This document shows positions 18,662 to 56,146 of a DNA stretch of 64,000 nt, piece by piece. The stretch is from an uncultured Acidobacteriota bacterium (GTDB taxonomy: Bacteria; Acidobacteriota; Thermoanaerobaculia; Multivoradales; SZUA-115): NCBI GenBank assembly GCA_963805975.1, contig CAWDVR010000001.1:1408001-1472000 (forward strand), given 5' to 3'. How positions within the stretch are numbered: position 1 is the first letter of the stretch; every line of letters starts with the position of its first letter. The notes beneath the pieces were generated by a model, which saw only the letters and a list, made by a program, of their open reading frames with translations, was not told the origin of the DNA and searched no databases. Both the position numbers and the translations under genes were made by a program.

Positions 18662-18791
18662 ACCGCGGAAACCCGCCGCGCCGTCACAAGAAGGCCATCT
18701 CCGGCGGCCTTCGATCCGCTAAGATCCCGCTATCTCCCTCAGCGGGGCCGGCCGGCTGGGCCGGTATCAAGTCGACTTGGAGGATCTGCTC

Positions 18792-21700
18792 TTGCGAAAC
18801 TCTCTACGCCTAGCCCTGGCCGCGTCATCCTGCCTCGTCGCCCTGGCCTTAGCTCGACCCGCCATCGCCCAGGTCTCGATGACCACCATCGGGTCCCCCT
18901 CCACTCAGAGCTTCGACACTCTGGCGACCTCGGGCACCGCCAACACCTGGACGGACAACACGACACTCGTCGGGTGGTACTCCCAGTTCGCCGCAACCGC
19001 CAACCCGACGACCTACCGTGCAGATGCCGGTGGGTCCAACACCGGGGCGATCTATAGCTGGGGCACCGGAACTGCCACCGAGCGCGCGCTCGGCTCGGTC
19101 GGATCCGGCGGGACGGCCGACATCTTCAATGCGGTCCGGCTGGTCAACAACACGGGCGTCACCATCACCTCGCTGCTGGTCGCCTTCAACGGCGAGCAGT
19201 GGCGTGCAGGAGGCTGCACCCCGACGCCCTGCACCCCGGCCGCCCAGAAGATCGACTTCCAGTACCAGGTCGCCAACGCCGGTGTGATCACCGATGCCAA
19301 CACCCCTACCACCGGCTGGACCGATCACAACCCGCTCGACTTCACCAGCCCGACACCCGGCACCTCGACCGCGGCGGCCCTCGACGGCAACGCGGCGGCC
19401 AACCGCACGGCCCTGTCGGCGACCGTCACGGTGACCGTCCTCGCCGGGCAGGAGATCTGGCTTCGCTGGTTCGACACCAACGACGCGAACAACGACCACG
19501 GCCTGGGCATCGACGACCTCTCCGTCACCCCGAACGGCGTCGCGCAGCCCAATCTGACGATCAACGACGTGTCGCTCAACGAGGGCAACGCCGGCACCAC
19601 GAACTTCACCTTTACTGTCAGCCTCTCCGCGCCGGCCGGCGCCGGCGGCGTGACCTTCAACATCGCGACCGCCGACGGCACCGCCCAGGACGACAACCCG
19701 GTCACCGAGGACAACGACTACCAGCTCAAGTCCCTCACCGCCCAGACCATCCCGGCCGGCAGCAGCACCTACGCCTTCACCGTGCTGGTCAACGGCGACA
19801 CTGCCCCGGAGACCAACGAGACCTTCTTCGTCAACGTCTCGAGCGTCACCAACGCCACCACCCTCGACTCCCAGGGCCAGGGCACGATCGTCAACGACGA
19901 CGCGGCGCCCAATCTGACGATCAACGACGTGTCGCTCAACGAGGGCAATGCCGGCACCACCACCTTCACCTTCACCGTCAGCCTCTCCGCGCCGGCCGGC
20001 GCCGGCGGCGTGACCTTCGACATCGCCACCGCGGACGGCACCGCCCAGGACGACAACCCGGTCACCGAGGACAACGACTACGTCGCGAAATCCCTCACCG
20101 CCCAGAGCATCCCGGCCGGCAGCAGCACCTACACCTTCGACGTGCTGGTCAACGGCGACCTCGTCCCGGAGGGCAACGAGACCTTCTTCGTCAACGTCAC
20201 CAACGTCGTGAACGCCATCCCGGCGGACGGGCAGGGCCAGGGCACGATCGTCAACGACGACCTCCACAAGATCCACGACATCCAGGGCAACGGCGCCGCG
20301 ACCCCGATCCCCGCCACCTCGGTCACCATCGAGGGAATCGTGGTCGGGGACTACCAGGGGGCGGCTCAGCTGCAAGGCTTCTTCCTGGAGGAGGAGAACG
20401 TCGATTTCGACGCCGACCCCGCGACCTCGGAGGGAGTCTTCGTCTTCTGCGGTTCCTGCACGACAGCGGTGGCCGAGGGGCAGCGGGTGCGCGCCACGGG
20501 CCTGGTCTCGGAGTTCTTCGGCATGACCGAGGTCACGGCCTCGAGCGTGGGCTCGGTGGTCGTCGTCAGCGCCGGCAACCATCTCGCCGAGGTGACCGCC
20601 GCGCCGCTCGACCTGCCGGTGGTCGGTGACGTCAACACCTACTACGAGGCGCGCGAAGGGATGCTGGTCACCTTCATCGACACGCTCTCGGTCTCCGAGT
20701 ACTTCGAGCTGCCGCGCTACGGAACCATCGAGCTCTTCGAGGGCGGCCGGCCGCGGCAGTTCACCGAGGCCTCGCCCCCGAGCGTGGCGGGCAACACCGC
20801 GCACCTCGACAACCTCAACCGCCGGCGGGTCATCCTCGACGACGACGACGACGGGCAGAACGTGCCGCTGACGCTGCCCGAAGGCAGCCAGTTCGTCTTC
20901 CACCCGCAGGCCAACGGCGGCTTCTCGGTCGGCACCCAGGGCACCGATTTCTTCCGCGGCGGCGACCTCGCCACCGGCTTGCGGGGCGTGCTGCACTGGT
21001 CCTTCTCGGGCGTTTCGGGCACCGACGCCTGGCGGCTGCGCCCCACCACCGCGGCCCCGGCCACGTTCACAGCCACCAACCTGCGCCCGGCGACACCGCC
21101 GGTGGTCGGCGGCGCCATCAAGGCGGCGAGCGTCAACCTCCTCAACTACTTCACCACCATCGACACCACCTCTAGCTCGACCTCGGGGCCCTGCGGCCCG
21201 GCGGCCGACCAGGACTGCCGCGGCGCCGACAGCGTCGCCGAGCTCACCCGCCAGCGGGAGCGGACCTCGATCGTGCTCTGCGCGCTCAACGCCCACGTCT
21301 TCGGCTTCGGGGAGCTCGAGAACACCACCGCCACCGGCACCATCAACGACCTCCTCGGTGCGGTGAACGCCCGCTGCGGCGGGGCGAACCCCTATGCCTT
21401 CGTCAATACCGGAAGCACTCTGGGTACCGATGCGATCCGGGTGGCGCTGATCTACCGCTCGGCCACCCTCTCCCCCGTGGGCTCGCCGCTCGTCGACCTC
21501 GACCCGATCCACAACCGGCCGCCCACCGCTCAGACCTTCGACGTCATCGAGGCGGCGAACCCGGCCTTCGGGCAGCGCTTCACGGTCATCCCCAACCACT
21601 TCAAGTCCAAGGGCTGCGACGCCTCGGCGGTCGGCGCCGACGCCGACACGTCCGACGGCCAGGGCTGCTACAACGGACGGCGCACTGCGCAGGCCACCCG

Positions 21701-24224
21701 CCTGCTCACCTGGATCACCAGCACCGTGTTGCCGGCAGCGGGTGATCCCGACGTGCTGCTGCTCGGTGACTTCAACTCCTATGCCCAGGAGAACCCGGTG
21801 ACCACGCTCGCGGCCGGCGGGTTCACCGACCTCGAAACCGCGTTCCTCGGTGCCAACGCCTACTCCTACCTCTTCGACGGCCAGCTCGGTCACCTGGACT
21901 ATGCCTTCGCCAGCTCGAGCCTGCTCCCGCGCGTCACCGGCATCGAGAGCTGGCACATCAACGCCGACGAGGTGCCCCTGCTCGACTACAACGACGAGGT
22001 CAAGGACACCGGCGAGGCCGCCTTCGAGGAGAAGCCCGACGGCTCCGCGCTCGTGCCGCCGCGCGTGATGTTCCAGCCTGCCACTCCCTTCCGCGCTTCC
22101 GACCACGATCCCGTGATCGTCGGGCTCTTCCAGGTCGCCGATCTCTCGGTCACCAAGGTGGACACCCCCGACCCGGTGACCGCCGGCAGCAACTTGACCT
22201 ACACCATCACGGTCGCCAACGCCGGGCCGGATCCAGCCGCTACGGTGGCTCTGTCGGACACCCTGCCCGCGGGGACGACCTTCGTCTCGCTGCCTCAGCC
22301 CGCCGGCTGGACCTGCACCACGCCCGCCGTGGGCTCCGGTGGCACCGTCTCCTGCTCGAACCCCAGCCTCGCGGTGGGCAGCACGGTCTTCACGCTGACC
22401 GTGCAGGTGGGCGCCGGCACGGCCGCCGGAACGGTGCTCTCGAACACCGCCACCGTCACCTCGGCTACGGGCGATCCCACACCGGCCGACCACAGCGCCA
22501 CGGCGACGACGACGGTTGGCGCCTCGGCCGATCTCTCGGTCACCAAGGTGGATACGCCCGACCCGGTGACGGCGGGCACGAACCTGACCTACACCATCAC
22601 CGTCACCAACGCCGGCCCGAGCAATGCCGCCTCGGCCAGCCTCTCCGACACCCTGCCCGCGGGGACGACCTTCGTCTCGCTGCCTCAGCCCGCCGGCTGG
22701 TCCTGCACCACGCCGGCGGTGGGTTCCGGCGGCACCGTGAGCTGCACGAACCCCAGCCTCGCGGCGGGCAGCGCGGTCTTCACGCTGACCGTGCAGGTGG
22801 CCGCCGGCACGGCCGGAGGCACCGTGCTCTCGAACACCGCAACGGTTTCTTCGGCGACCACGGACCCGAGCCCCGGCAACAACAGCGCCACGGCCACCAC
22901 CACGGTGGGTGCCTCGGCGGACCTCTCCGTCACCAAGGTCGACACCCCTGACCCGGTGACGGCAGGAACGAACCTGACCTACACCATCACCGCCACCAAC
23001 GTCGGTCCCAGCAACGCGGCCTCGGCCGGCCTCTCGGACACGCTCCCCGCTGGCACCACCTTCGTCGCGCTCGTCCCGGCAGCCGGCTGGAGCTGCACCA
23101 CCCCGGCGGTGGGCTCCGGCGGCACCGTGAGCTGCACGAACCCCAGCTTCGCGGCGGGAAGCGCCGTCTTCACGCTGACCGTGCAGGTGGCGGCCGGCAC
23201 GGCCGGCGGCACGGTGCTCTCGAACACCGCCACGGTCTCGTCCAGCACCACGGACGGCAACCCCGGCAACAACAGCGCCACGGCCACCACCACGGTGGGC
23301 GCCTTGGCGGACCTGTCCATCACCAAGACCGACAGCCCCGACCCGGTGACCGCCGGCACCAACCTGACCTACACCATCACCGTCACCAACGCCGGTCCCA
23401 GCAGCGCCTCGACCGTCAGTCTCTCGGACACGCTGCCCGCCAGCACCACCTTCGTCTCTCTCGCTTCGCCGGCCGGCTGGAGCTGCACCACCCCGGCGGT
23501 GGGCTCCGGCGGCACCGTGACCTGCGCCAACCCCAGCTTCGCGGCGGGGAGCGCGGTGTTCACGCTCGTCGTGCAGGTGGACGTCGGCACGGCCGGTGGC
23601 ACGGTGCTCTCGAACACCGCCACGGTCACCTCGGCGACCTCGGAGCCCGGCACGGGCGGCAGCAGCAACAGCGCCACGACCACCACCACGGTGACGGCGG
23701 CGAACGCGGTGTCCGCCACCAAGACCGCATCGGGCGGCTCGGGCCCCAACACCACTGTGCTCTATACCGTGGTGCTCTCGAACCCCGGCCCGAATGCCCA
23801 GGGCGACAACCCGGGCGACGAGTTCACCGACGTGCTGCCGACCGACCTGACGCTCACGGGTGCCACGGCTACCAGCGGCACGGTGGCGACCGACGGCAAC
23901 ACGGTGACCTGGAACGGCGCGATCCCGGTGGGCGGCTCAGTGACCATCGAGATCGAGGCCCTGGTCAATCCCGAGGTGCAGCCGGGCACGGTCATCAGCA
24001 ACCAGGGCACCGTGGCCTACGACGCCGACGGCAACGGGACCAACGAGTCCAGCGCCCCGACCGACGACCCGGCCGTGCCCGGCGGCGGCGACCCGACCAC
24101 GATCGTGGTGGGTGTCGCCGGCACGATCGACATCCCGACCCTGGACTCGCTCGGGCTCGTGCTGTTGGCGATGGTTCTGGCGGCGCTCGGGTTGGCCGTC
24201 CTGCGGCGGCGGAAGGCGGCGTAG
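18792..24224 (+). CDS. Large extracellular ExeM/NucH-family endonuclease with 2 Calx-beta domains, 4-5 DUF11 domains and an IPTL-CTERM sorting signal
   Basis: SD GGAGGA then TTG; signal peptide; IHDIQG, NHFKSKG, GDFN, LDY and SDHDP nuclease motifs; C-terminal IPTL + TM helix + RRRK. Confidence 0.88.
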   Translation: MRNSLRLALAASSCLVALALARPAIAQVSMTTIGSPSTQSFDTLATSGTANTWTDNTTLVGWYSQFAATANPTTYRADAGGSNTGAIYSWGTGTATERALGSVGSGGTADIFNAVRLVNNTGVTITSLLVAFNGEQWRAGGCTPTPCTPAAQKIDFQYQVANAGVITDANTPTTGWTDHNPLDFTSPTPGTSTAAALDGNAAANRTALSATVTVTVLAGQEIWLRWFDTNDANNDHGLGIDDLSVTPNGVAQPNLTINDVSLNEGNAGTTNFTFTVSLSAPAGAGGVTFNIATADGTAQDDNPVTEDNDYQLKSLTAQTIPAGSSTYAFTVLVNGDTAPETNETFFVNVSSVTNATTLDSQGQGTIVNDDAAPNLTINDVSLNEGNAGTTTFTFTVSLSAPAGAGGVTFDIATADGTAQDDNPVTEDNDYVAKSLTAQSIPAGSSTYTFDVLVNGDLVPEGNETFFVNVTNVVNAIPADGQGQGTIVNDDLHKIHDIQGNGAATPIPATSVTIEGIVVGDYQGAAQLQGFFLEEENVDFDADPATSEGVFVFCGSCTTAVAEGQRVRATGLVSEFFGMTEVTASSVGSVVVVSAGNHLAEVTAAPLDLPVVGDVNTYYEAREGMLVTFIDTLSVSEYFELPRYGTIELFEGGRPRQFTEASPPSVAGNTAHLDNLNRRRVILDDDDDGQNVPLTLPEGSQFVFHPQANGGFSVGTQGTDFFRGGDLATGLRGVLHWSFSGVSGTDAWRLRPTTAAPATFTATNLRPATPPVVGGAIKAASVNLLNYFTTIDTTSSSTSGPCGPAADQDCRGADSVAELTRQRERTSIVLCALNAHVFGFGELENTTATGTINDLLGAVNARCGGANPYAFVNTGSTLGTDAIRVALIYRSATLSPVGSPLVDLDPIHNRPPTAQTFDVIEAANPAFGQRFTVIPNHFKSKGCDASAVGADADTSDGQGCYNGRRTAQATRLLTWITSTVLPAAGDPDVLLLGDFNSYAQENPVTTLAAGGFTDLETAFLGANAYSYLFDGQLGHLDYAFASSSLLPRVTGIESWHINADEVPLLDYNDEVKDTGEAAFEEKPDGSALVPPRVMFQPATPFRASDHDPVIVGLFQVADLSVTKVDTPDPVTAGSNLTYTITVANAGPDPAATVALSDTLPAGTTFVSLPQPAGWTCTTPAVGSGGTVSCSNPSLAVGSTVFTLTVQVGAGTAAGTVLSNTATVTSATGDPTPADHSATATTTVGASADLSVTKVDTPDPVTAGTNLTYTITVTNAGPSNAASASLSDTLPAGTTFVSLPQPAGWSCTTPAVGSGGTVSCTNPSLAAGSAVFTLTVQVAAGTAGGTVLSNTATVSSATTDPSPGNNSATATTTVGASADLSVTKVDTPDPVTAGTNLTYTITATNVGPSNAASAGLSDTLPAGTTFVALVPAAGWSCTTPAVGSGGTVSCTNPSFAAGSAVFTLTVQVAAGTAGGTVLSNTATVSSSTTDGNPGNNSATATTTVGALADLSITKTDSPDPVTAGTNLTYTITVTNAGPSSASTVSLSDTLPASTTFVSLASPAGWSCTTPAVGSGGTVTCANPSFAAGSAVFTLVVQVDVGTAGGTVLSNTATVTSATSEPGTGGSSNSATTTTTVTAANAVSATKTASGGSGPNTTVLYTVVLSNPGPNAQGDNPGDEFTDVLPTDLTLTGATATSGTVATDGNTVTWNGAIPVGGSVTIEIEALVNPEVQPGTVISNQGTVAYDADGNGTNESSAPTDDPAVPGGGDPTTIVVGVAGTIDIPTLDSLGLVLLAMVLAALGLAVLRRRKAA
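19548..20260 (+). repeat. Two intragenic tandem Calx-beta repeats, 360-bp period
   Basis: CCCAATCTGACGATCAACGACGTGTCGCTCAACGAGGGC starts at 19548 and 19908. Confidence 0.9.
22137..23696 (+). repeat. Four intragenic tandem DUF11 repeats, 390-bp period
   Basis: ADLS(V/I)TK..D.PDPVTAG units begin at 22137, 22527, 22917, 23307. Confidence 0.9.
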
Positions 24225-26451: not shown

Positions 26452-27690
26452 ATGCGGCTCTACGCATTCCAGGGACTGCGCTTCAACCGGCCGGCCGCGG
26501 AGATCGACCCGCTGGTCGCCCCCGCCTACGACCAGATCGACGACAAGCTGCGGGACGAGCTGCATGCCCGCTCGCCTCAGCAGTTCGCCTGGCTGACGAA
26601 ACCGGTCGCCGGCCCCGGCCGCGACCCCTACCAGCAGTCGGCCTGGCTGCACCGCGAGTGGCTGGAGGACGGCACCGTGGTGCGGGACCCGGAGCCCTCG
26701 CTCTACGCCTATGCGATCGAGCTCGCCGGTGGGGGCCGGCGGCTCGGGATCTGCGCCCTGGCCGGGGTCGAGGACCCGGCGAGCGGCATCATCCGCGCCC
26801 ACGAGGAAACTCTCGACAAGCCGCTCGCCGACCGCGTTGCGCTGCTCAAGGCCAACCGTGTGGACCTCGAGCCGATCTTCTTTCTTACCGAGGACGGCGG
26901 GGCGCTCGATGCGCTGCTCCTGGAAGACATGGCCGGCGCCGAGCCCGTGGCCGAGCACCACGACCCGGACGGCCACCGACATCACCTCTACCGCATCGCC
27001 GATCCGCGTCGCATCACCCGCTACCGAGAGCTCCTCTCGCCGCTCCCGGCCGCCATCGCCGACGGCCACCATCGCTACAAGACCGCCTCCCTCTATGCGG
27101 CGGAGTCGGGCGCCGCGCCGGGCACCGCCGCCGCCGCCAAGCTCACCGTGGTCACCAGTCTCGACTCACCGGGCCTCGCCATCGACCCCATCCATCGCGC
27201 GCTCGGCACGCTGCTGGACGTCACCCCGGCCCGGCACCTGGCCCTTGCGAGGCAGACCCTGGAAACCACGGACGGTGCCGAAGTAGCCGCGGCCGTGGCC
27301 ACCGCGCCGCAGCCGTCTCTGGGAGTCTGGGTGAGCGGAGAGAAGCCCGAGGTTTGGCAGCTCGACGCCAGCCAGGCGCCTGCCGGGCTCCCGGCCGGCG
27401 CCCGCGACCTCTCGGTCTCGCTGCTCCACGGCATGTTCTTGCCGGCGCTCGGCTTCGCGCCGGAAACCGCGACCGACGGCACCATCGTCTACCGTTCGAG
27501 CCCGGAGAAGCTGGCGAGTGAGCTGCGCACGGGTGCCCTCGCCGTGGGGCTGCTGCTGCCGCCGATGACGCCGGCCGCTTTTGCCGCCGCCATCGCCAAC
27601 GGCGACCTGCTACCGCCCAAGTCCACGCGCTTTTTGCCGAAGGTTTTTTCCGGCCTCGTGTGGGCCGATCACGATTCCGGGCTGGGCTGA
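26452..27690 (+). CDS. DUF1015 family protein
   Basis: [28 protein letters not shown]; TACAAT and AGGAGG upstream. Confidence 0.88.
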
Positions 27691-27695
27691 GGAAC

Positions 27696-27830
27696 GAAAA
27701 CGGGCCCGTGCACCAGCGGTTGAACGCCTCCCCTCCCTGACACCGTTCTCCTTCGGGAGAGGTTCACCCCGGGAAACGGTAAAAACCGGGGTTCGACGCC
27801 TGCCGCCCGTGCCAAGCATCCGGGCCACGC
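27696..27830 (-). ncRNA. Candidate structured small RNA of unknown family (about 130 nt); strand uncertain
   Basis: Closing stems GGCCCG/CGGGCC and GCAC..GCGG/CCGC..GTGC enclose two hairpins; sigma54-like motif just upstream and TTTTCGTT after the closing stem on the minus strand. Confidence 0.5.
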
Positions 27831-27838
27831 GACGCAGA

Positions 27839-27856
27839 AAGCACGATCGGGGCCAG
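27839..27856 (-). promoter_or_regulatory. Candidate sigma54 (-24/-12) promoter
   Basis: Minus strand CTGGCCCCGATCGTGCTT = TGG-N10-GC; predicted start near 27829. Confidence 0.5.
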
Positions 27857-27901
27857 CTTTGGAACGCAAGGGCTCGGAGAGCGCCGGCAGTTACGCCGGT
27901 C

Positions 27902-30049
27902 TCAGCTCTTGGCTCGCGCGGCGAGCGGTGGCAGCACGTAGAGCGCGACCGCACCGGACATCAGCGTGCCGACCGCCACCGCGATGCCGAAGCGCTGGGT
28001 GGGTGGGAAGCTCGAGAGAGCGAAGAGCACGAAGCCCAGGGCCACGATCAACGTGGCGCTGACCACGGCGCCTCCCATCTCGACCCGCGCCCGGAGCCAG
28101 GCGGCGGCAGCCGGAAGCCCCTCGCGGCGCGCCCGGCGGGCGGCGGCGGCGAGCTGGATCATCGAGTCGACGCCGATGCCGATCGCCACCTGGGCTGCCG
28201 GCGAGGAGATGAAGTCGAGCGGCATGCCGAGGAGACCCATGCCGCCCACCAAGAAGATCGGCACCAAGGCGAGCGCGCCCACCATGGCGAGCCCCGTGCC
28301 GAGCGAGCGCGAGACCCAGCTCCCGATGACGAAGAAGAGCAACAGCAGGCCGGCGAGGCCGGTCGCCAGGCTCTCCGCCACCAGCTCTCCGAGCTTGCCC
28401 TGCAGCTCGTAGAGACCACCCACCAGCTCCGGCTCCAGGCCCGCCTGCCGCACCTGGGCCGAAACCCGGTCGATCACCGCCTGCCGCGGCTCGGCGCGGC
28501 CGGCCTCGCGCATGCGGAGGAAGAACTGGGCGCTCTTGCGGTCGGCGGTGACGAAAGACAGCGCCACCCGGTCGTAGGCGGGCTGCTCGAGCACGGTGAG
28601 GAGCGCAGCCGAGGGCAGGAGGGCCGCCATCGCCGAGGCGCGCCGCGCCTCCTCCAGGAGCGGCGCCGCCGACAGCACGGTGCCGGCCGCCGGCTCTTCT
28701 TCCAGCGCGGCCTGCAGGGCCCGCAGCTTGGCCACCGCCGGCTCCGTGTCGAGCACTTCGCCGGCAGGGTCCCGGACCACGACCGAGAGCGGGCTCGAGC
28801 CGCCGTCGGCGTCGATCAGCTCGAGGCCTTGCCGCAGCTCGGAGCCGGAACGGAAATAGGAGAGCAGGCTGGGGTCGGTCGACAGGCGGAGCGCCCCGAG
28901 CCCCACCACGAGGCACAGGAGGGTGAGCGCCAGCGCCGGCCGCCAGCTCGAGCTCGCAGCCCCGGAACCCATGGAGGCGTTGGCCGGTGGCTTGGCGCCA
29001 CGCAGGAAGGGCGGGTAGAAGGTGTAGGCGGTGGCGATGGCGAGCGCCGTGCCCACCGCACCGGCGAGGCCGAGCTCGCGCATGGGCTTGGCGGAGGCGA
29101 AGAGCAGCGAGAGGAAGGAGAGGAGGGTCGCCGCCATGCACCAGAACGAGGCCGGGAGCGTGAGGCGCACGGCCTCCCTGACTACGGCTTCGGGGTCGGC
29201 ACCCTCCCGCACCGCGAGCCGCCGCCAGTTCGAGGACAGGAACACGGCGTGCGACAGCGTGAGCACGAAGACGATGGTCACCAGGTTGGCGGTCAGGATG
29301 CCCAGGTGAAAACCGGCCACGCCCAAGAGGCCGAGGGTCAGCGCGCAGGCGGTGAGGCACGCCGCGAGAGTGCCGGCCACGATCCGCGCCGAGCGGAACA
29401 GGGCGGCGATCACCAGGCCGAAGATCAGGATGGCGCCGCCGGAGAAGAGCGACAGATCGCGCCGCAGGTAGCGGCGGATCATCTCGACCACGTAGGGAAC
29501 GCCCGAGATCTCGACGTCGAGGCCGGAGCGCGCAGCGGCCTCTTCGACGGCCGCGACGGTCGGAGCCGGCTCGCCGTCACCCAGCAGCACCACGAGGTTC
29601 GTGGCCTGCTCCTCGCGGGGCACCAGCAGGCGGCGCCAGAACGGGCTGTCGAAGGCGGCTGCCGGCCGCGGCGGGCCCTTGGTCAGGCTCTGCACGCTCG
29701 CCACGCCCGGCGCCTGGGCGATCTCCGTGGTGAGCTTCCCGACCGCCTCGGCATACTCCGGCGAGCGCACTGCTCCGGCGGCCCGCAGGATGAGCTGCGG
29801 CCGGGACGGGAAGCGCTCGGCGATGGCCTCCGAGGCCTGGAGCTGCGGATCGTCGGTCGAAAAGAAAAAATCACTCTCGACGCGCGGTGCCAAGTCCACG
29901 CCCAAGAGCACCGCCGCCACGCAGAGCGCGGCGAGGAAGAGCAGGAGGCCCTCGCGCGCCCAGCCGGCCTCGGTCGACCTCGCGTACGCGTGAGGTAGCT
30001 CTCTCGTTGCGGTGCTCGAGCTCCCTGGCAGGCGGCCTGCGCTCCTCAC
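27902..30049 (-). CDS. MMPL/RND-family transporter (start uncertain)
   Basis: Two halves, each with a periplasmic loop and TM bundle; SGVPYV, IGIGVDS, FPPTQRFG. Confidence 0.85.
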   Translation of the reverse strand: MRSAGRLPGSSSTATRELPHAYARSTEAGWAREGLLLFLAALCVAAVLLGVDLAPRVESDFFFSTDDPQLQASEAIAERFPSRPQLILRAAGAVRSPEYAEAVGKLTTEIAQAPGVASVQSLTKGPPRPAAAFDSPFWRRLLVPREEQATNLVVLLGDGEPAPTVAAVEEAAARSGLDVEISGVPYVVEMIRRYLRRDLSLFSGGAILIFGLVIAALFRSARIVAGTLAACLTACALTLGLLGVAGFHLGILTANLVTIVFVLTLSHAVFLSSNWRRLAVREGADPEAVVREAVRLTLPASFWCMAATLLSFLSLLFASAKPMRELGLAGAVGTALAIATAYTFYPPFLRGAKPPANASMGSGAASSSWRPALALTLLCLVVGLGALRLSTDPSLLSYFRSGSELRQGLELIDADGGSSPLSVVVRDPAGEVLDTEPAVAKLRALQAALEEEPAAGTVLSAAPLLEEARRASAMAALLPSAALLTVLEQPAYDRVALSFVTADRKSAQFFLRMREAGRAEPRQAVIDRVSAQVRQAGLEPELVGGLYELQGKLGELVAESLATGLAGLLLLFFVIGSWVSRSLGTGLAMVGALALVPIFLVGGMGLLGMPLDFISSPAAQVAIGIGVDSMIQLAAAARRARREGLPAAAAWLRARVEMGGAVVSATLIVALGFVLFALSSFPPTQRFGIAVAVGTLMSGAVALYVLPPLAARAKS

Positions 30050-33731: not shown

Positions 33732-33851
33732 CCCCTCACCCCTGCCCCTCTCCCCGCTCACGCGGGGCGAGGGGTTCTGAAGCCCGACGCTTTGACGGTC
33801 TCCCCTCCGGTCCCCTCTCCCCGCATGCGGGGAGAGGGCTAGGGTGAGGGG
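33732..33851. repeat. Inverted pair of CCCTCACCCC-type REP elements
   Basis: CCCCTCACCCCTGCCCCTCTCCCCGC..GCGGGGCGAGGGG (33732-33774) and CCCCTCTCCCCGCATGCGGGGAGAGGGCTAGGGTGAGGGG (33812-33851). Confidence 0.85.
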
Positions 33852-34885
33852 TAGACCGGCGTCTTTGCCGGCGCGCCGGCCACTTCCCGCACCAGGCGCG
33901 GCACCAGGTACCCGGGAAGCCGCACCGTCAGCGCGGCCATCAGCCGCACGGCCTCCTTCTCCTCCACCTCGAAGTGGGCCGTGCCCGTCACGCGGTCGAG
34001 GAGGTGGAGGTAGTACGGCAGCACTCCGGTCGCGAACAGGGCCCGCGAGAGATCGGCCAGCGCCTCCACCGAATCGTTCACCCCGCGCAGCAGCACGGCC
34101 TGGTTCAGCAGGGGCACGCCGGCTGCCTTGAAGCGCGCCATGGCCGCGGCGACCTCGGCGTCGATCTCCCGCGCGTGGTTGGCGTGCAGCACGACCACCG
34201 GTGCGAGGCGAGTGCCGGTGAGCCAGGCGAGGAGGTCGTCATCCACCCGCTCTGGGAGCACGACCGGGGTGCGGGTGTGGACCCGGAGCCGTGTCAGGTG
34301 GGGGATCTCGGCGAGCGACTCGGCCAGCCGTGCGAGCCGCGCGTCGGGAAGGAGCAGCGGATCGCCCCCCGAGAGGATCACCTCTTCGATCGTGGGATCG
34401 GCCGCGAGATAGGCCAGCGCCTGCTCGAATCCCGCCGCTGACGCGCCCTGCTCCGCGTACGGGAACTCGCGGCGGAAGCAGTAGCGGCAGTGGACGGCAC
34501 AGGCTCCCGCCGCCACCAGCAGCGCCCGCCCCTGGTACTTGTGGAGCACTCCGGGCACGGCCGCCCAGGCCAGCTCGCCGAGCGGATCAGCGGTGAAGCC
34601 CGGCCTCGCCTCGAGCTCCGCTGCCAAGGGAAGGACCTGGGCGAGCAACGGGTCGCGGAGGTCACCCTTCCGCATGCGCGCAACGAAGCTCCGCGGCACC
34701 CGCAGCGGGAACAGCCGGCCGGCACGGCGCATGCCGTCGAGGAGCCCGTCTGCGCTCGCGGAGGGCAGCTCGAGCAGCACCAGGAGCTCGGCCGGGTCGG
34801 TGACCGCTTGGGCGAGGCTCCGGCGCCACGCCCCCGGCACGGGCCGGGACGTCACCTGCGGATCAGCGGCAGTTCGCGCTATCAT
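33839..34885 (-). CDS. epmB: EF-P beta-lysylation protein EpmB (lysine 2,3-aminomutase)
   Basis: [11 protein letters not shown] radical SAM motif, [24 protein letters not shown]; divergent from efp. Confidence 0.95.
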
Positions 34886-34939
34886 TCCGCGCGCTCCGCG
34901 GCAAACCCCGAGCAGGATGAGCTTTCGAAGAGGATCCCC

Positions 34940-35503
34940 ATGGCGACGTATTACACCAACCAGTTCAAGTCCGGCCTGAAGATTATGATCGATGGCGACC
35001 CCTACACCATCGTCGAGAACGAGATGGTCAAGCCGGGCAAGGGCCAGGCCTTCAACCGCGTCCGGGTCAAGAACCTCAAGACCGGGCGCACCGTCGAGAA
35101 GACCTGGAAGTCCGGCGATTCGGTGGAAGGCGCCGACGTGGTCGAGACCGAGATGCAGTACCTCTACAACGACGGCGAGAAATGGCACTTCATGGTGCCC
35201 TCGACTTACGAGCAGCACGAGGCGGACGAGCTCGTGCTCGGGGATGCCGCGCAGTGGCTCAAGGAGCAGGACATCTGCTACGTGACGCTCTGGGACGGCC
35301 GACCCCTCCTGGTCGTTCCCCCGGCCTTCGTGGTGCTCAAGATCGTCGAGACCGATCCCGGCGTGCGCGGCGACACCTCGAGCGGCGGCACCAAGCCGGC
35401 CAAGCTCGAGACCGGCGCGGTGGTGAAGGTGCCGCTCTTCATCCAGGAAGGCGAGGTCATCCGGGTCGACACCCGCATCGGTGAGTACGTGTCGCGAGCG
35501 TGA
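34940..35503 (+). CDS. efp: Elongation factor P
   Basis: [39 protein letters not shown]. Confidence 0.98.
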
Positions 35504-35516
35504 GCAAGGACCTGTC

Positions 35517-36479
35517 GTGAGCGCGGACTGGCGCCCGTCCGCCTCGTTCGCCAACCTCCGTCTGCGGGCGCAGATCCTGGCGCAGATCCGCGCCTTCTTC
35601 GCCGCCCGCGGGGTGCTCGAGGTGGAGACCCCGGCGCTCTCGGGCGCCACCGTCACCGATCTTCATCTCGCGAGCCTCGAGACGCGCTGCCGGGCCGGGG
35701 CCGCCGGCGAGCGCACGCTCTATCTCCAAACCTCGCCCGAGTTCGCCATGAAGCGGCTGCTGGCCGCCGGCAGCGGGCCCATCTACCAGCTGGCCCGCGC
35801 TTTCCGGGACGGCGAGGCCGGACGCCGCCACAACCCGGAGTTCACCCTCCTCGAGTGGTACCGCCCCGGCCTCGATCACCACGGCCTGATGGACGAGATG
35901 GAGGCCTTGCTGAGCGAGATCCTGGGGACCGGGCCTGCCGTGCGGCTGAGCTATGCGGAGCTGTTCGAGGAGCGGCTGGGCGTCGACCCGCATGCGGCTT
36001 CCCCGCTCGAGCTCGCGGCCGCGGCCCGAGCCGCAGGCCTCGCAGATCCGCTCGACCTCGACCGCGACGGCTGGCTCGACCTGCTGCTCGCCGTGGTGCT
36101 CGAGCCGGGGCTCGGTCGCGGCCGGCCGGCCTTCCTCTACGACTTCCCGGCCAGCCAGGCCGCCCTGGCGCGGGTGCGGCCCGGGCCGCCGGCCGTCGCC
36201 GAGCGTTTCGAGGTCTTCGTCGAGGGCGTGGAGCTCGCCAACGGCTTCCACGAGCTGGCCGACCCAGCCGAGCAGCGGCGGCGCTTCGAGCGCGACCTCG
36301 AGCGCCGCCGCGAGCGCGGCCTGCCCGCGGTTCCGATCGACGAGCATCTGCTCGCAGCCCTCGCCGCCGGCCTGCCGCCGTGCGCCGGCGTGGCGCTCGG
36401 AGTCGACCGCCTGGTGATGCTGGCCGCAGGTGCCTCGTCGCTCGCGGAGGTGCTCGCCTTCCCCGTCGACCGCGCCTGA
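35517..36479 (+). CDS. epmA: EF-P lysine aminoacylase EpmA
   Basis: LQTSPEFAMKRLL, HNPEFTLLEWY, ELANGFHEL, GVALGVDRL. Confidence 0.96.
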   Translation: MSADWRPSASFANLRLRAQILAQIRAFFAARGVLEVETPALSGATVTDLHLASLETRCRAGAAGERTLYLQTSPEFAMKRLLAAGSGPIYQLARAFRDGEAGRRHNPEFTLLEWYRPGLDHHGLMDEMEALLSEILGTGPAVRLSYAELFEERLGVDPHAASPLELAAAARAAGLADPLDLDRDGWLDLLLAVVLEPGLGRGRPAFLYDFPASQAALARVRPGPPAVAERFEVFVEGVELANGFHELADPAEQRRRFERDLERRRERGLPAVPIDEHLLAALAAGLPPCAGVALGVDRLVMLAAGASSLAEVLAFPVDRA

Positions 36480-55206: not shown

Positions 55207-56146
55207 GGTCGTCCTTCGGAGAAACGTACTCGGCCAGCAGCTCGTCGACCAGCGCCGCCCGGCCGGCCTCTACCCGGTCCTCGATCACGGTGCGGCTCAA
55301 GGCCTCGAGCTCCGGCACCACGGCGAGGTTGCCTTCGCGGGCGAGGGCCGCCACGTCGTAGGCCGCGCCGTCCACCCAGCGGCCGGCACGGGACAGGGCG
55401 AGGCCCTGGCCCACCGGGCGCTCGAGAGCGAGCCAGAGCTCGGCGGCGAGGAGCAGGGCGGCGGCGAGCTCGCGGTTGCCCGCGCCGCCGAGCGGCGGCC
55501 TGGGCAAGGGTCGCGGCAGGAAGACGCCCAGCCCGAAGCCCGCCGCCACGCGAGCGAAGTCTCGGGCGTTGGACGGAGCACGGTGGAAGAGCGCCTTGAA
55601 CACCTGCTCGCCCCGCCCCTGGGCGAGCCGCCGGCTGGCGGCAGGCGACAGCTCGAGCGCCAGCGGCTGCACCACCGAGACGCCTGCTCCGGCCAGGACC
55701 TCACAACCCCGGCGCCACTCTCCGGGATCGTCCGTCAGCCCGGCAACGAGTGGCCAGGCGGCGGCGGCACCGGATGGCAGGCGAGCCAAGGCCGCGAGAT
55801 CGCGATCGAGGAGCGCCGGCAGCAGGTCGTAGACCGAGGTCAGACCGGCGACCGGCGCCTCTTCGCCCGGCGCGAGCTGCCAGAGCACCGGCGTGCCCTC
55901 GGCGAGCCGCGCCTCGGCCACGGCCTGGCGCGCCTCTGCTGCCGCGGGAGCCACGGGTGGTAGATAGAGAAGATCGTCGAGCGGGCGCTCGATCTCGATC
56001 GCCGCCTCGGGCGCCGGCTCACCGAGATCGGCGGTCGCGAAGCTCGTCCAGAAAGACGCGGGGCCAGGCCAGACAGAGGGCGTGAACCGGACCCAGAGCC
56101 GGCCCGGGTCCGGGAGCAGCGTCCGGAGCCGCGTGGTGTCGGTCAT
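55196..56146 (-). CDS. Hypothetical protein with C-terminal PolX-like helix-hairpin-helix (8-kDa) domain
   Basis: C-terminus NRELAAAL...ALSRAGRWV...DVAALAREGNLAVVP...G.AALVDELLAEY resembles the PolX N-terminal domain; central PLVAGLTDD. Confidence 0.6.
   Translation of the reverse strand: MTDTTRLRTLLPDPGRLWVRFTPSVWPGPASFWTSFATADLGEPAPEAAIEIERPLDDLLYLPPVAPAAAEARQAVAEARLAEGTPVLWQLAPGEEAPVAGLTSVYDLLPALLDRDLAALARLPSGAAAAWPLVAGLTDDPGEWRRGCEVLAGAGVSVVQPLALELSPAASRRLAQGRGEQVFKALFHRAPSNARDFARVAAGFGLGVFLPRPLPRPPLGGAGNRELAAALLLAAELWLALERPVGQGLALSRAGRWVDGAAYDVAALAREGNLAVVPELEALSRTVIEDRVEAGRAALVDELLAEYVSPKDDHAG

Follow-up and report, generated by a model that had tools for sequence, protein, structure and literature searches.

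A further copy of the orphan CyVA-1 RNA in an Acidobacteriota genome, with a predicted loop-loop helix and a probable sigma54 promoter

Qrr, GlmY and CrcZ are small RNAs whose transcription is driven by sigma54. CyVA-1 (RF02965) comes from the study of Weinberg et al. 2017 (PMC5737381), the main text of which mentions it a single time, with a mean length of 78 nt; a cyanobacterial CyVA-1 is reported at low abundance in a halite metatranscriptome (10.1101/761684). The Rfam model of the family is 77 nt long and both of its loops are drawn unpaired (such models cannot show pseudoknots). Among other structured RNAs of bacteria, three of the DUF3800-I, drum, skipping-rope and FuFi-1 motifs were tested and no self-cleavage was seen, as stated in the main text of PMC5737381, and in the 5' domain of the SRP Alu RNA of B. 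subtilis two hairpin loops form a pseudoknot of 5-7 bp, as described in the text of PMC4231752.

The locus described here lies in a stretch of 64,000 nt (the window) from the genome of an uncultured Acidobacteriota bacterium of the class Thermoanaerobaculia, in an intergenic gap of 211 nt (27691-27901) bounded by the convergent genes of a DUF1015 protein (plus strand) and an MMPL-family transporter (minus strand). An initial annotation had proposed in this gap a candidate sigma54-dependent structured small RNA of the minus strand, not assignable to a known family and perhaps titrating proteins through two unpaired twin motifs. Its letters and coordinates were right throughout, since the gap, the stem GGCCCG/CGGGCC, the segments GCAC..GCGG/CCGC..GTGC, the hairpin CCCCGG/CCGGGG and both 10-mers were all found in place, but three of its structural readings (the unpaired twin motifs, GGGAGGGGAGG and a TCTCC/GGAGA hairpin) were not sustained. 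In the interpretation, the stand-alone structured RNA and its probable sigma54 promoter held, whereas the lack of a known family and the titration through twin motifs had to be given up. The features of the locus, in positions of the window, are the following.

26452..27690, plus strand: flanking gene of a DUF1015 protein (PF06245, E 1.8e-58), convergent, context only
27696..27829, minus strand: predicted RNA of ~130 nt, the CyVA-1 core on a long interrupted closing stem (constrained fold)
27703..27826, minus strand: predicted outer stem stack, 27826-27821 with 27708-27703, 27812-27809 with 27713-27710 and 27807-27803 with 27719-27715 (constrained fold)
27723..27800, minus strand: helix P1, GGCGUC (27800-27795) with GGCGUU (27728-27723), from the Rfam alignment and the constrained fold
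27724..27799, minus strand: CyVA-1 core, Rfam RF02965, model positions 1-77 of 77
27730..27762, minus strand: hairpin P3 with the conserved loop GAAGGAGAACGGUGUCA; 92.9% of cells paired, two-sided changes at 6 of 8 pairs
27742..27780, minus strand: predicted loop-loop helix of 7 bp, ACCGUUU (27780-27774) with GAACGGU (27748-27742), three pairs covarying
27767..27791, minus strand: hairpin P2 with the conserved loop GUUUUUACCGUUUC; 89.9% of cells paired, two-sided changes at 4 of 5 pairs, in 69 sequences
27841..27855, minus strand: probable sigma54 promoter TGGCCCCGATCGTGC, -24 GG at 27854-53, -12 GC at 27842-41, predicted +1 at 27829
27902..30049, minus strand: flanking gene of an MMPL-family transporter (PF03176, E 1.2e-29), upstream of the RNA on the same strand, context only

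The family was identified by cmscan, which matched RF02965 at 27724-27799 of the minus strand with 52.6 bits against a gathering score of 41.4 (E 3.5e-9); the candidate is therefore, in the terms of the initial annotation, real but not novel. Rfam classes RF02965 as 'Gene; sRNA', and the window copy agrees with it in score, in the three-way junction with two large loops and in its intergenic position. CyVA-1 was the only family of Rfam 15 above its cut-off anywhere in the window, where no match to 6S, Acido-1, Acido-Lenti-1, riboswitches or ribozymes passed. RF02965 was also the best match at the motif in all 20 homologue loci tested (above the cut-off in 15), with no other family there at E up to 0.05; of 20 viral loci that had matched more loosely, 7 passed the RF02965 cut-off. 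A second copy was detected in the 5.36-Mb genome neither by Rfam above the cut-off (next best E 0.028) nor by nhmmer with the alignment of homologues (next best E 0.15), which agrees with the earlier expectation that the element is no dispersed repeat. On sequence evidence, we conclude that the locus is a real RNA gene, a further member of a known but functionally blank family.

In other parts of the window, a 98-nt tRNA-Gly called by ARAGORN at 55580-55677 of the minus strand is probably false, as Rfam finds no tRNA there. A radical-SAM gene, efp and a class II lysyl-tRNA-synthetase-like gene are clustered at 33842-36479 (Pfam), which we take to be an EF-P beta-lysylation set of epmB-like, efp and epmA-like genes. 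At 18777-24224 of the plus strand a secreted-looking protein of 1815 aa is encoded, with Calx-beta, endonuclease/exonuclease/phosphatase and five DUF11 domains and a C-terminal membrane anchor, presumably of the IPTL type.

The folding energy of the region was ordinary when compared with shuffled sequences (z -0.39 for the minus and 0.71 for the plus strand), so the case for an RNA must be comparative and not thermodynamic. Unconstrained folding, likewise no better than shuffles, mispaired the core and was set aside. Open reading frames crossing the gap (27581-29998 on the plus and 27610-27954 on the minus strand) overlap real genes and were rejected as shadow frames, because one-sided changes from C-G to U-G and from A-U to G-U point to RNA.

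Homologues were collected with core patterns, which gave at least 119 stretches in GTDB, 14 contigs in IMG/VR (48 with a looser pattern) and, with a variant of the core, at least 120 stretches in metagenomes. From 120 de-duplicated loci listed 10 failed the core filter, one of which (L061) was later reinstated while L010 was removed, and the alignment holds 69 of the 117 loci listed after a 90% redundancy filter. It should be emphasized that the patterns themselves fix the core, thus its invariance is overstated, and that related copies are not independent. Covariation among homologues, named in the initial annotation as a check, was found in P2, in P3 and in three loop-loop pairs. In the 69 non-redundant copies 94.6% of the cells of P2, P3 and the loop-loop helix were paired, against 35-51% in slid controls, and 11 of their 20 pairs had two-sided changes. 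The stem of P3 is extended by G27754-C27739 and A27753-U27740, with A27738 bulged.

The first loop-loop pair, A-U in 41 and G-C in 26 of the 69 sequences, was the second-ranked pair of columns by APC-corrected mutual information. The second pair was then predicted to covary as well. When A was required in loop 3 and no base was imposed on loop 2, U occupied the loop 2 position in about 88 of 93 normal-length metagenome cores among the matches listed. In the viral scan 31 of 32 distinct phage cores, with 10 different triplets, were complementary at the three free pairs; with a stricter filter, which omitted L315 (non-pairing, probably a chance match) and L320 (pairing, with a long spacer), the count was 31 of 31, while shuffling gave a mean of 5.0 and a maximum of 14. 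The remaining four pairs are invariant but fixed by the search patterns, hence uninformative. Folding with the loops constrained to stay open gave a three-way junction for 211 of the 219 distinct members, its stems having medians of 10, 6 and 9 bp, and about 22 loop bases are invariant across phyla, many of them fixed by the search pattern. The outer stem stack lies outside the Rfam model and its length varies among homologues. The predicted fold is thus a three-way junction locked by a loop-loop helix of 7 bp, and this loop-loop pairing is the main conserved feature, which the first reading had overlooked. The pairing could be intramolecular or swapped between two molecules, and a homodimer of the CyVA-1 RNA is a possibility. 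That the invariant run of five U forms base triples with the invariant U-A pairs of the loop-loop helix is a guess.

The same comparison bears on the twin motifs. AGGCGTCGAA and AGGCGTTCAA, which had been described as unpaired, are the two partners of a duplex of -6.9 kcal/mol (27800-27795 with 27728-27723), the Rfam alignment also makes them the closing helix, and they look alike because helix P1 is nearly palindromic; the genome G001, of the same genus, has GGGCGCC and GGCGCCC at these positions. GGGAGGGGAGG, proposed as a further junction motif, belongs for the most part to the 3' strand of helix P3 (27762-27755 with 27737-27730). Only 12 of 221 distinct cores could form the TCTCC/GGAGA hairpin, which conflicts with the conserved fold. 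A role in titrating a CsrA- or Hfq-like protein, with repeated single-stranded motifs as its binding sites, or in mRNA pairing of the Qrr type would be suggested by the sigma54 box, by analogy with Qrr, GlmY and CrcZ, and one GGA does occur in loop 3 of the window copy. The repeats needed for titration are engaged in helix P1 and are not conserved, AGGCG being found on both sides in 1 of the 117 homologues listed, and at the two bases which complete the GGA here, GA occurs in 12 of 221 cores. Additionally, neither CsrA nor Ro60 (TROVE) was found in any of five carrier genomes (91-100% complete), and the variable loop bases covary internally, which makes pairing to an mRNA or another outside target unlikely. 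This model is largely refuted and we regard it as highly improbable.

The promoter reading fared better. The letters CTGGCCCCGATCGTGCTT are present on the minus strand with GG at 27854-53 and GC at 27842-41, and a start near 27829 from a probable sigma54 promoter, as first proposed, is upheld by the enrichment of the box in the window's class, by its retention with identical spacing in G001 and by rpoN in the genome, which encodes sigma54 (one PF04552 gene) together with 22 matches to the activator domain PF00158. The box was scored at 11 positions of the sigma54 consensus (-24 GG / -12 GC), of which the window copy matches 8. A score of at least 8/11 was reached by 6 of the 8 first-found copies of the class against 5 of 87 other copies, mostly from Terriglobia (shuffles 5.3%), or by 6 of the 7 class members having 130 nt of upstream sequence; at -24 the class member L006 reads GT, not GG, and in the eighth, L040, no box was found within 107 nt upstream. 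Sigma54 boxes also precede L142 (same order), a single Pirellulales copy, one of three Gemmataceae copies and a single copy in a 'proteobacterium' record, whereas none of seven phage copies has one. With 70% GC in this genome, the bare GG-N10-GC turns up 28 times in every kb; the tighter TGGC[AC]C-N5-NTGC[AT], a pattern designed once the site was known, has 92 matches genome-wide. Among homologues the predicted +1 precedes the core by 24-48 nt, a distance that varies roughly with how long the closing stem is; this is a soft test on non-independent kin, and the agreement between +1 and stem start weakened once 12 more bases were folded. Another TGGCACG, at 27814-27808, was rejected as a promoter since it has no -12 partner and is not kept in G001.

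Judged from these sequence features, control of the window's RNA by sigma54 is likely. It is a lineage-specific trait and not one of the CyVA-1 family, because in many Terriglobia-type copies the promoter box is GCATCTAA-like. This box was found at 20 of 105 and 35 of 86 other copies among the matches listed, where about one was expected; it stands upstream of GTDB and metagenome copies (e.g. L011, L022), and in some copies GAACT lies ~16 nt ahead of it. We take it to resemble the -10 element of ECF sigma factors, which suggests an ECF-type promoter in Terriglobia. The ends of the predicted transcript were placed by the promoter box and by the U-tract at 27702-27699. For the window's RNA no canonical intrinsic terminator was detected, and among the matches listed only about one copy in three is followed by a U-tract.

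The occurrence of the RNA is patchy: by the exact pattern, which misses divergent copies, it was found in 5 of 251 genomes of the order and 3 of 301 of the phylum. GTDB copies among the matches listed belong mostly to Terriglobia/Acidobacteriaceae, with some in Thermoanaerobaculia, Planctomycetes and others. A strict pattern run on 401 genomes of the class recovered only the genome's own copy, being too strict and missing the G001 variant; the Rfam search of 61 relatives scored 63 candidates per genome, so its misses are weak; and our search model R1 found nothing in five genomes of the same family with 150 candidates each. The interval between DUF1015 and MMPL is a variable slot among relatives. 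G001 has a CyVA-1 copy in the same interval, whereas G004 and G005 retain both genes with a small ORF between them and no RNA; the RNA thus behaves as an accessory cassette. In G001 (L005 321-1921) the slot also holds a small Cys-rich ORF and an extra gene, serine-hydrolase-like by eye, the end of which overlaps the 3' arm of the RNA on the other strand, and the ORF of G004 (L154 1085-1471) and G005 encodes ~128 aa and is rhodanese-like by eye.

No fixed neighbour gene of CyVA-1 copies was found among the bacterial and phage loci compared. The downstream gene was on the opposite strand in 21 of the 32 loci where a crude caller found one, and the upstream gene was on the same strand in 14 and on the opposite strand in 12. 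The convergent downstream gene in the window and the varied neighbours of homologues agree with the initial view of a stand-alone RNA of the minus strand and not a 5' UTR riboswitch. Local associations do occur. In one Terriglobia clade (L014 1164-1463, ~30 related loci) the RNA is followed by a convergent membrane protein of ~100 aa without a Pfam match and by an exported-looking protein of ~170 aa; the 30 and 26 hits to these proteins all lie in the loci, and both are absent from the window's genome and from the phage loci. In L011, L018, L022, L031 and L064 a gene for a small protein, RRM-type by eye, lies divergently upstream of the RNA, as a possible partner for the U-rich loop or by mere synteny. 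A HipA-like gene lies directly upstream of the copy in L006 (143-1399), the one with the GT-for-GG box.

These neighbourhoods weigh on two other explanations. The element could act in cis, protecting or processing an mRNA end (here that of the MMPL message) with no separate RNA being made; the window RNA lies 73 nt downstream of the same-strand MMPL gene, and in phages, copies stand behind probable capsid or portal genes or ahead of a Shine-Dalgarno sequence and ATG. Against this, many copies have a promoter box of their own, the relatives G004 and G005 keep DUF1015 and MMPL without the RNA, and the orientation of the upstream gene is mixed, as counted above. For several phage copies, which directly precede a same-strand gene, a cis role fits equally well, but for the locus as a whole we hold it to be improbable. 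Alternatively, the invariant core might be the ligand pocket or active site of a free-standing aptamer or ribozyme. Its topology resembles that of purine riboswitch aptamers, some phage copies lie between genes of one operon, and the RNA occurs in several phyla, contains a junction and a pseudoknot and has many invariant bases, which are the three marks of 'biochemically sophisticated' RNAs in the main text of PMC5737381. This explanation has to account for the lack of a consistent downstream gene or expression platform among the loci, for a promoter box directly at the 5' end, which suggests a stand-alone transcript, and for the absence of any riboswitch or ribozyme family at E up to 0.05 in 20 loci. 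It is therefore unlikely, though less so than the cis-acting element.

Phage carriage is the further property revealed by the scans. The phage copies have terminase, head, tail, SSB, nuclease, tRNA and tmRNA genes nearby and no common partner; their adjacency to phage hallmark genes may come from the selection of viral contigs. In the phage contig L320 (1500-3067) a tmRNA, a spore photoproduct lyase-like gene and a long-spacer variant of CyVA-1 lie within 1.6 kb. Searches with blastn against INPHARED phages and PLSDB plasmids gave chance-level matches only. Cyanobacterial-type or loop-mismatched units were sought in three viral scans, with 0, 0 and 13 hits; none of the 13 scored under R1, and no cyanobacterial copy was recovered. 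Among 290 pattern matches, counted with their duplicates, not one had a second unit in tandem.

The tRNA and tmRNA genes, near phage copies in 4 of the 20 loci scanned and in L131, would suit a free counterpart of the SRP Alu domain or of the tRNA elbow, which would bind the ribosome or a translation factor and slow translation when switched on. Such an RNA would share with the Alu 5' domain the closing helix, the two hairpins, the short linker and the loop-loop pseudoknot, as these are given in the text of PMC4231752. However, the linkers (UUG, CUUA, CUUG, GAA) lack UGU and there is no S domain, no SRP family matched the window or the 20 loci, this type of junction is common, and the distribution, with 3 carriers among 301 genomes of the phylum, is patchy; a general association with tRNA is absent in bacteria (3 of 60 loci). 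We consider this reading doubtful, about on a level with the cis-acting element.

The reading that we prefer, to which we give a probability of roughly 0.5, is a stand-alone, trans-acting RNA of ~130 nt, the rigid fold of which is bound by a protein or RNP partner. A single CyVA-1 unit would be transcribed alone from the sigma54 promoter, would fold into the three-way junction locked by the loop-loop helix, and would present a rigid surface in trans to a conserved protein or RNP, as decoy or scaffold. Expression would be conditional, as is suggested by the different conserved promoter box carried in other lineages. The reading draws on family membership, the single copy, the covariation of P2, P3 and three loop pairs, phage carriage, patchiness and the lack of a fixed neighbour; a protein- or RNP-binding RNA is favoured because there are no repeats, no CsrA or Ro60 in the five carriers and no common neighbour, because the marks of a demanding function are present, and because comparable motifs (PMC5737381) occur alongside proteins and showed no self-cleavage in tests. 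A more daring version, which we consider improbable, would see in CyVA-1 an Alu- or tRNA-elbow-like free RNA machine, spread by phages, possibly a loop-swapped homodimer, and domesticated under alternative sigma factors (sigma54 here), which binds the ribosome or decoys a conserved stress or defence protein, the three covarying loop pairs serving as a code of self-recognition.

The 2017 supplement may already show the pseudoknot of CyVA-1; in the open literature, a scope that leaves aside this supplement and subscription papers, we found the pseudoknot, the phage carriage and the promoter boxes nowhere described. The locus is one more copy of a catalogued RNA, and its value lies in what it adds to an orphan family: the loop-loop pseudoknot is well supported, phages carry members, and the promoter boxes, which differ by lineage (the sigma54 type here, the GCATCTAA type in many Terriglobia), indicate when to look for the RNA. 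A pseudoknotted RNA of 77 nt that occurs in several phyla is easy to make and to test, and finding its partner, ligand or activity would amount to a new RNA function.

Compared with known systems, the window RNA shares a probable sigma54 promoter and the stand-alone small format with Qrr, GlmY, CrcZ and the CsrB/RsmZ type, but it has no seed region and no repeated motifs, there is no CsrA in its carriers, and its core is invariant and pseudoknotted. A likeness to Y RNA/YrlA was not seen, either as a TROVE gene in the five carriers or as an Rfam match in the window and the 20 loci. The DUF3800-I, drum, skipping-rope and FuFi-1 motifs are likewise highly conserved, trans-acting structured RNAs of several phyla, but according to the main text of PMC5737381 they have 3' terminators and three of them a specific neighbouring protein, neither of which was found here for CyVA-1. 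With the Alu 5' domain of B. subtilis, as treated in the text of Kempf et al. 2014 (PMC4231752), it has in common the three-way junction and the closing helix; unlike SRP Alu it has no UGU linker, no S domain and no sequence or Rfam similarity, and CyVA-1 is patchy and phage-borne whereas SRP Alu is a housekeeping RNA. The closest system remains CyVA-1 itself (RF02965), matched over its full length and shared in the three-way junction, the loop sequences, the intergenic position and the want of a fixed neighbour. Relative to the Rfam model the window RNA has ~50 nt of extra closing stem and the sigma54 box, and its loops are self-complementary (ACC/GGU), whereas the ACC/GAC of the Rfam consensus is non-complementary at two positions.
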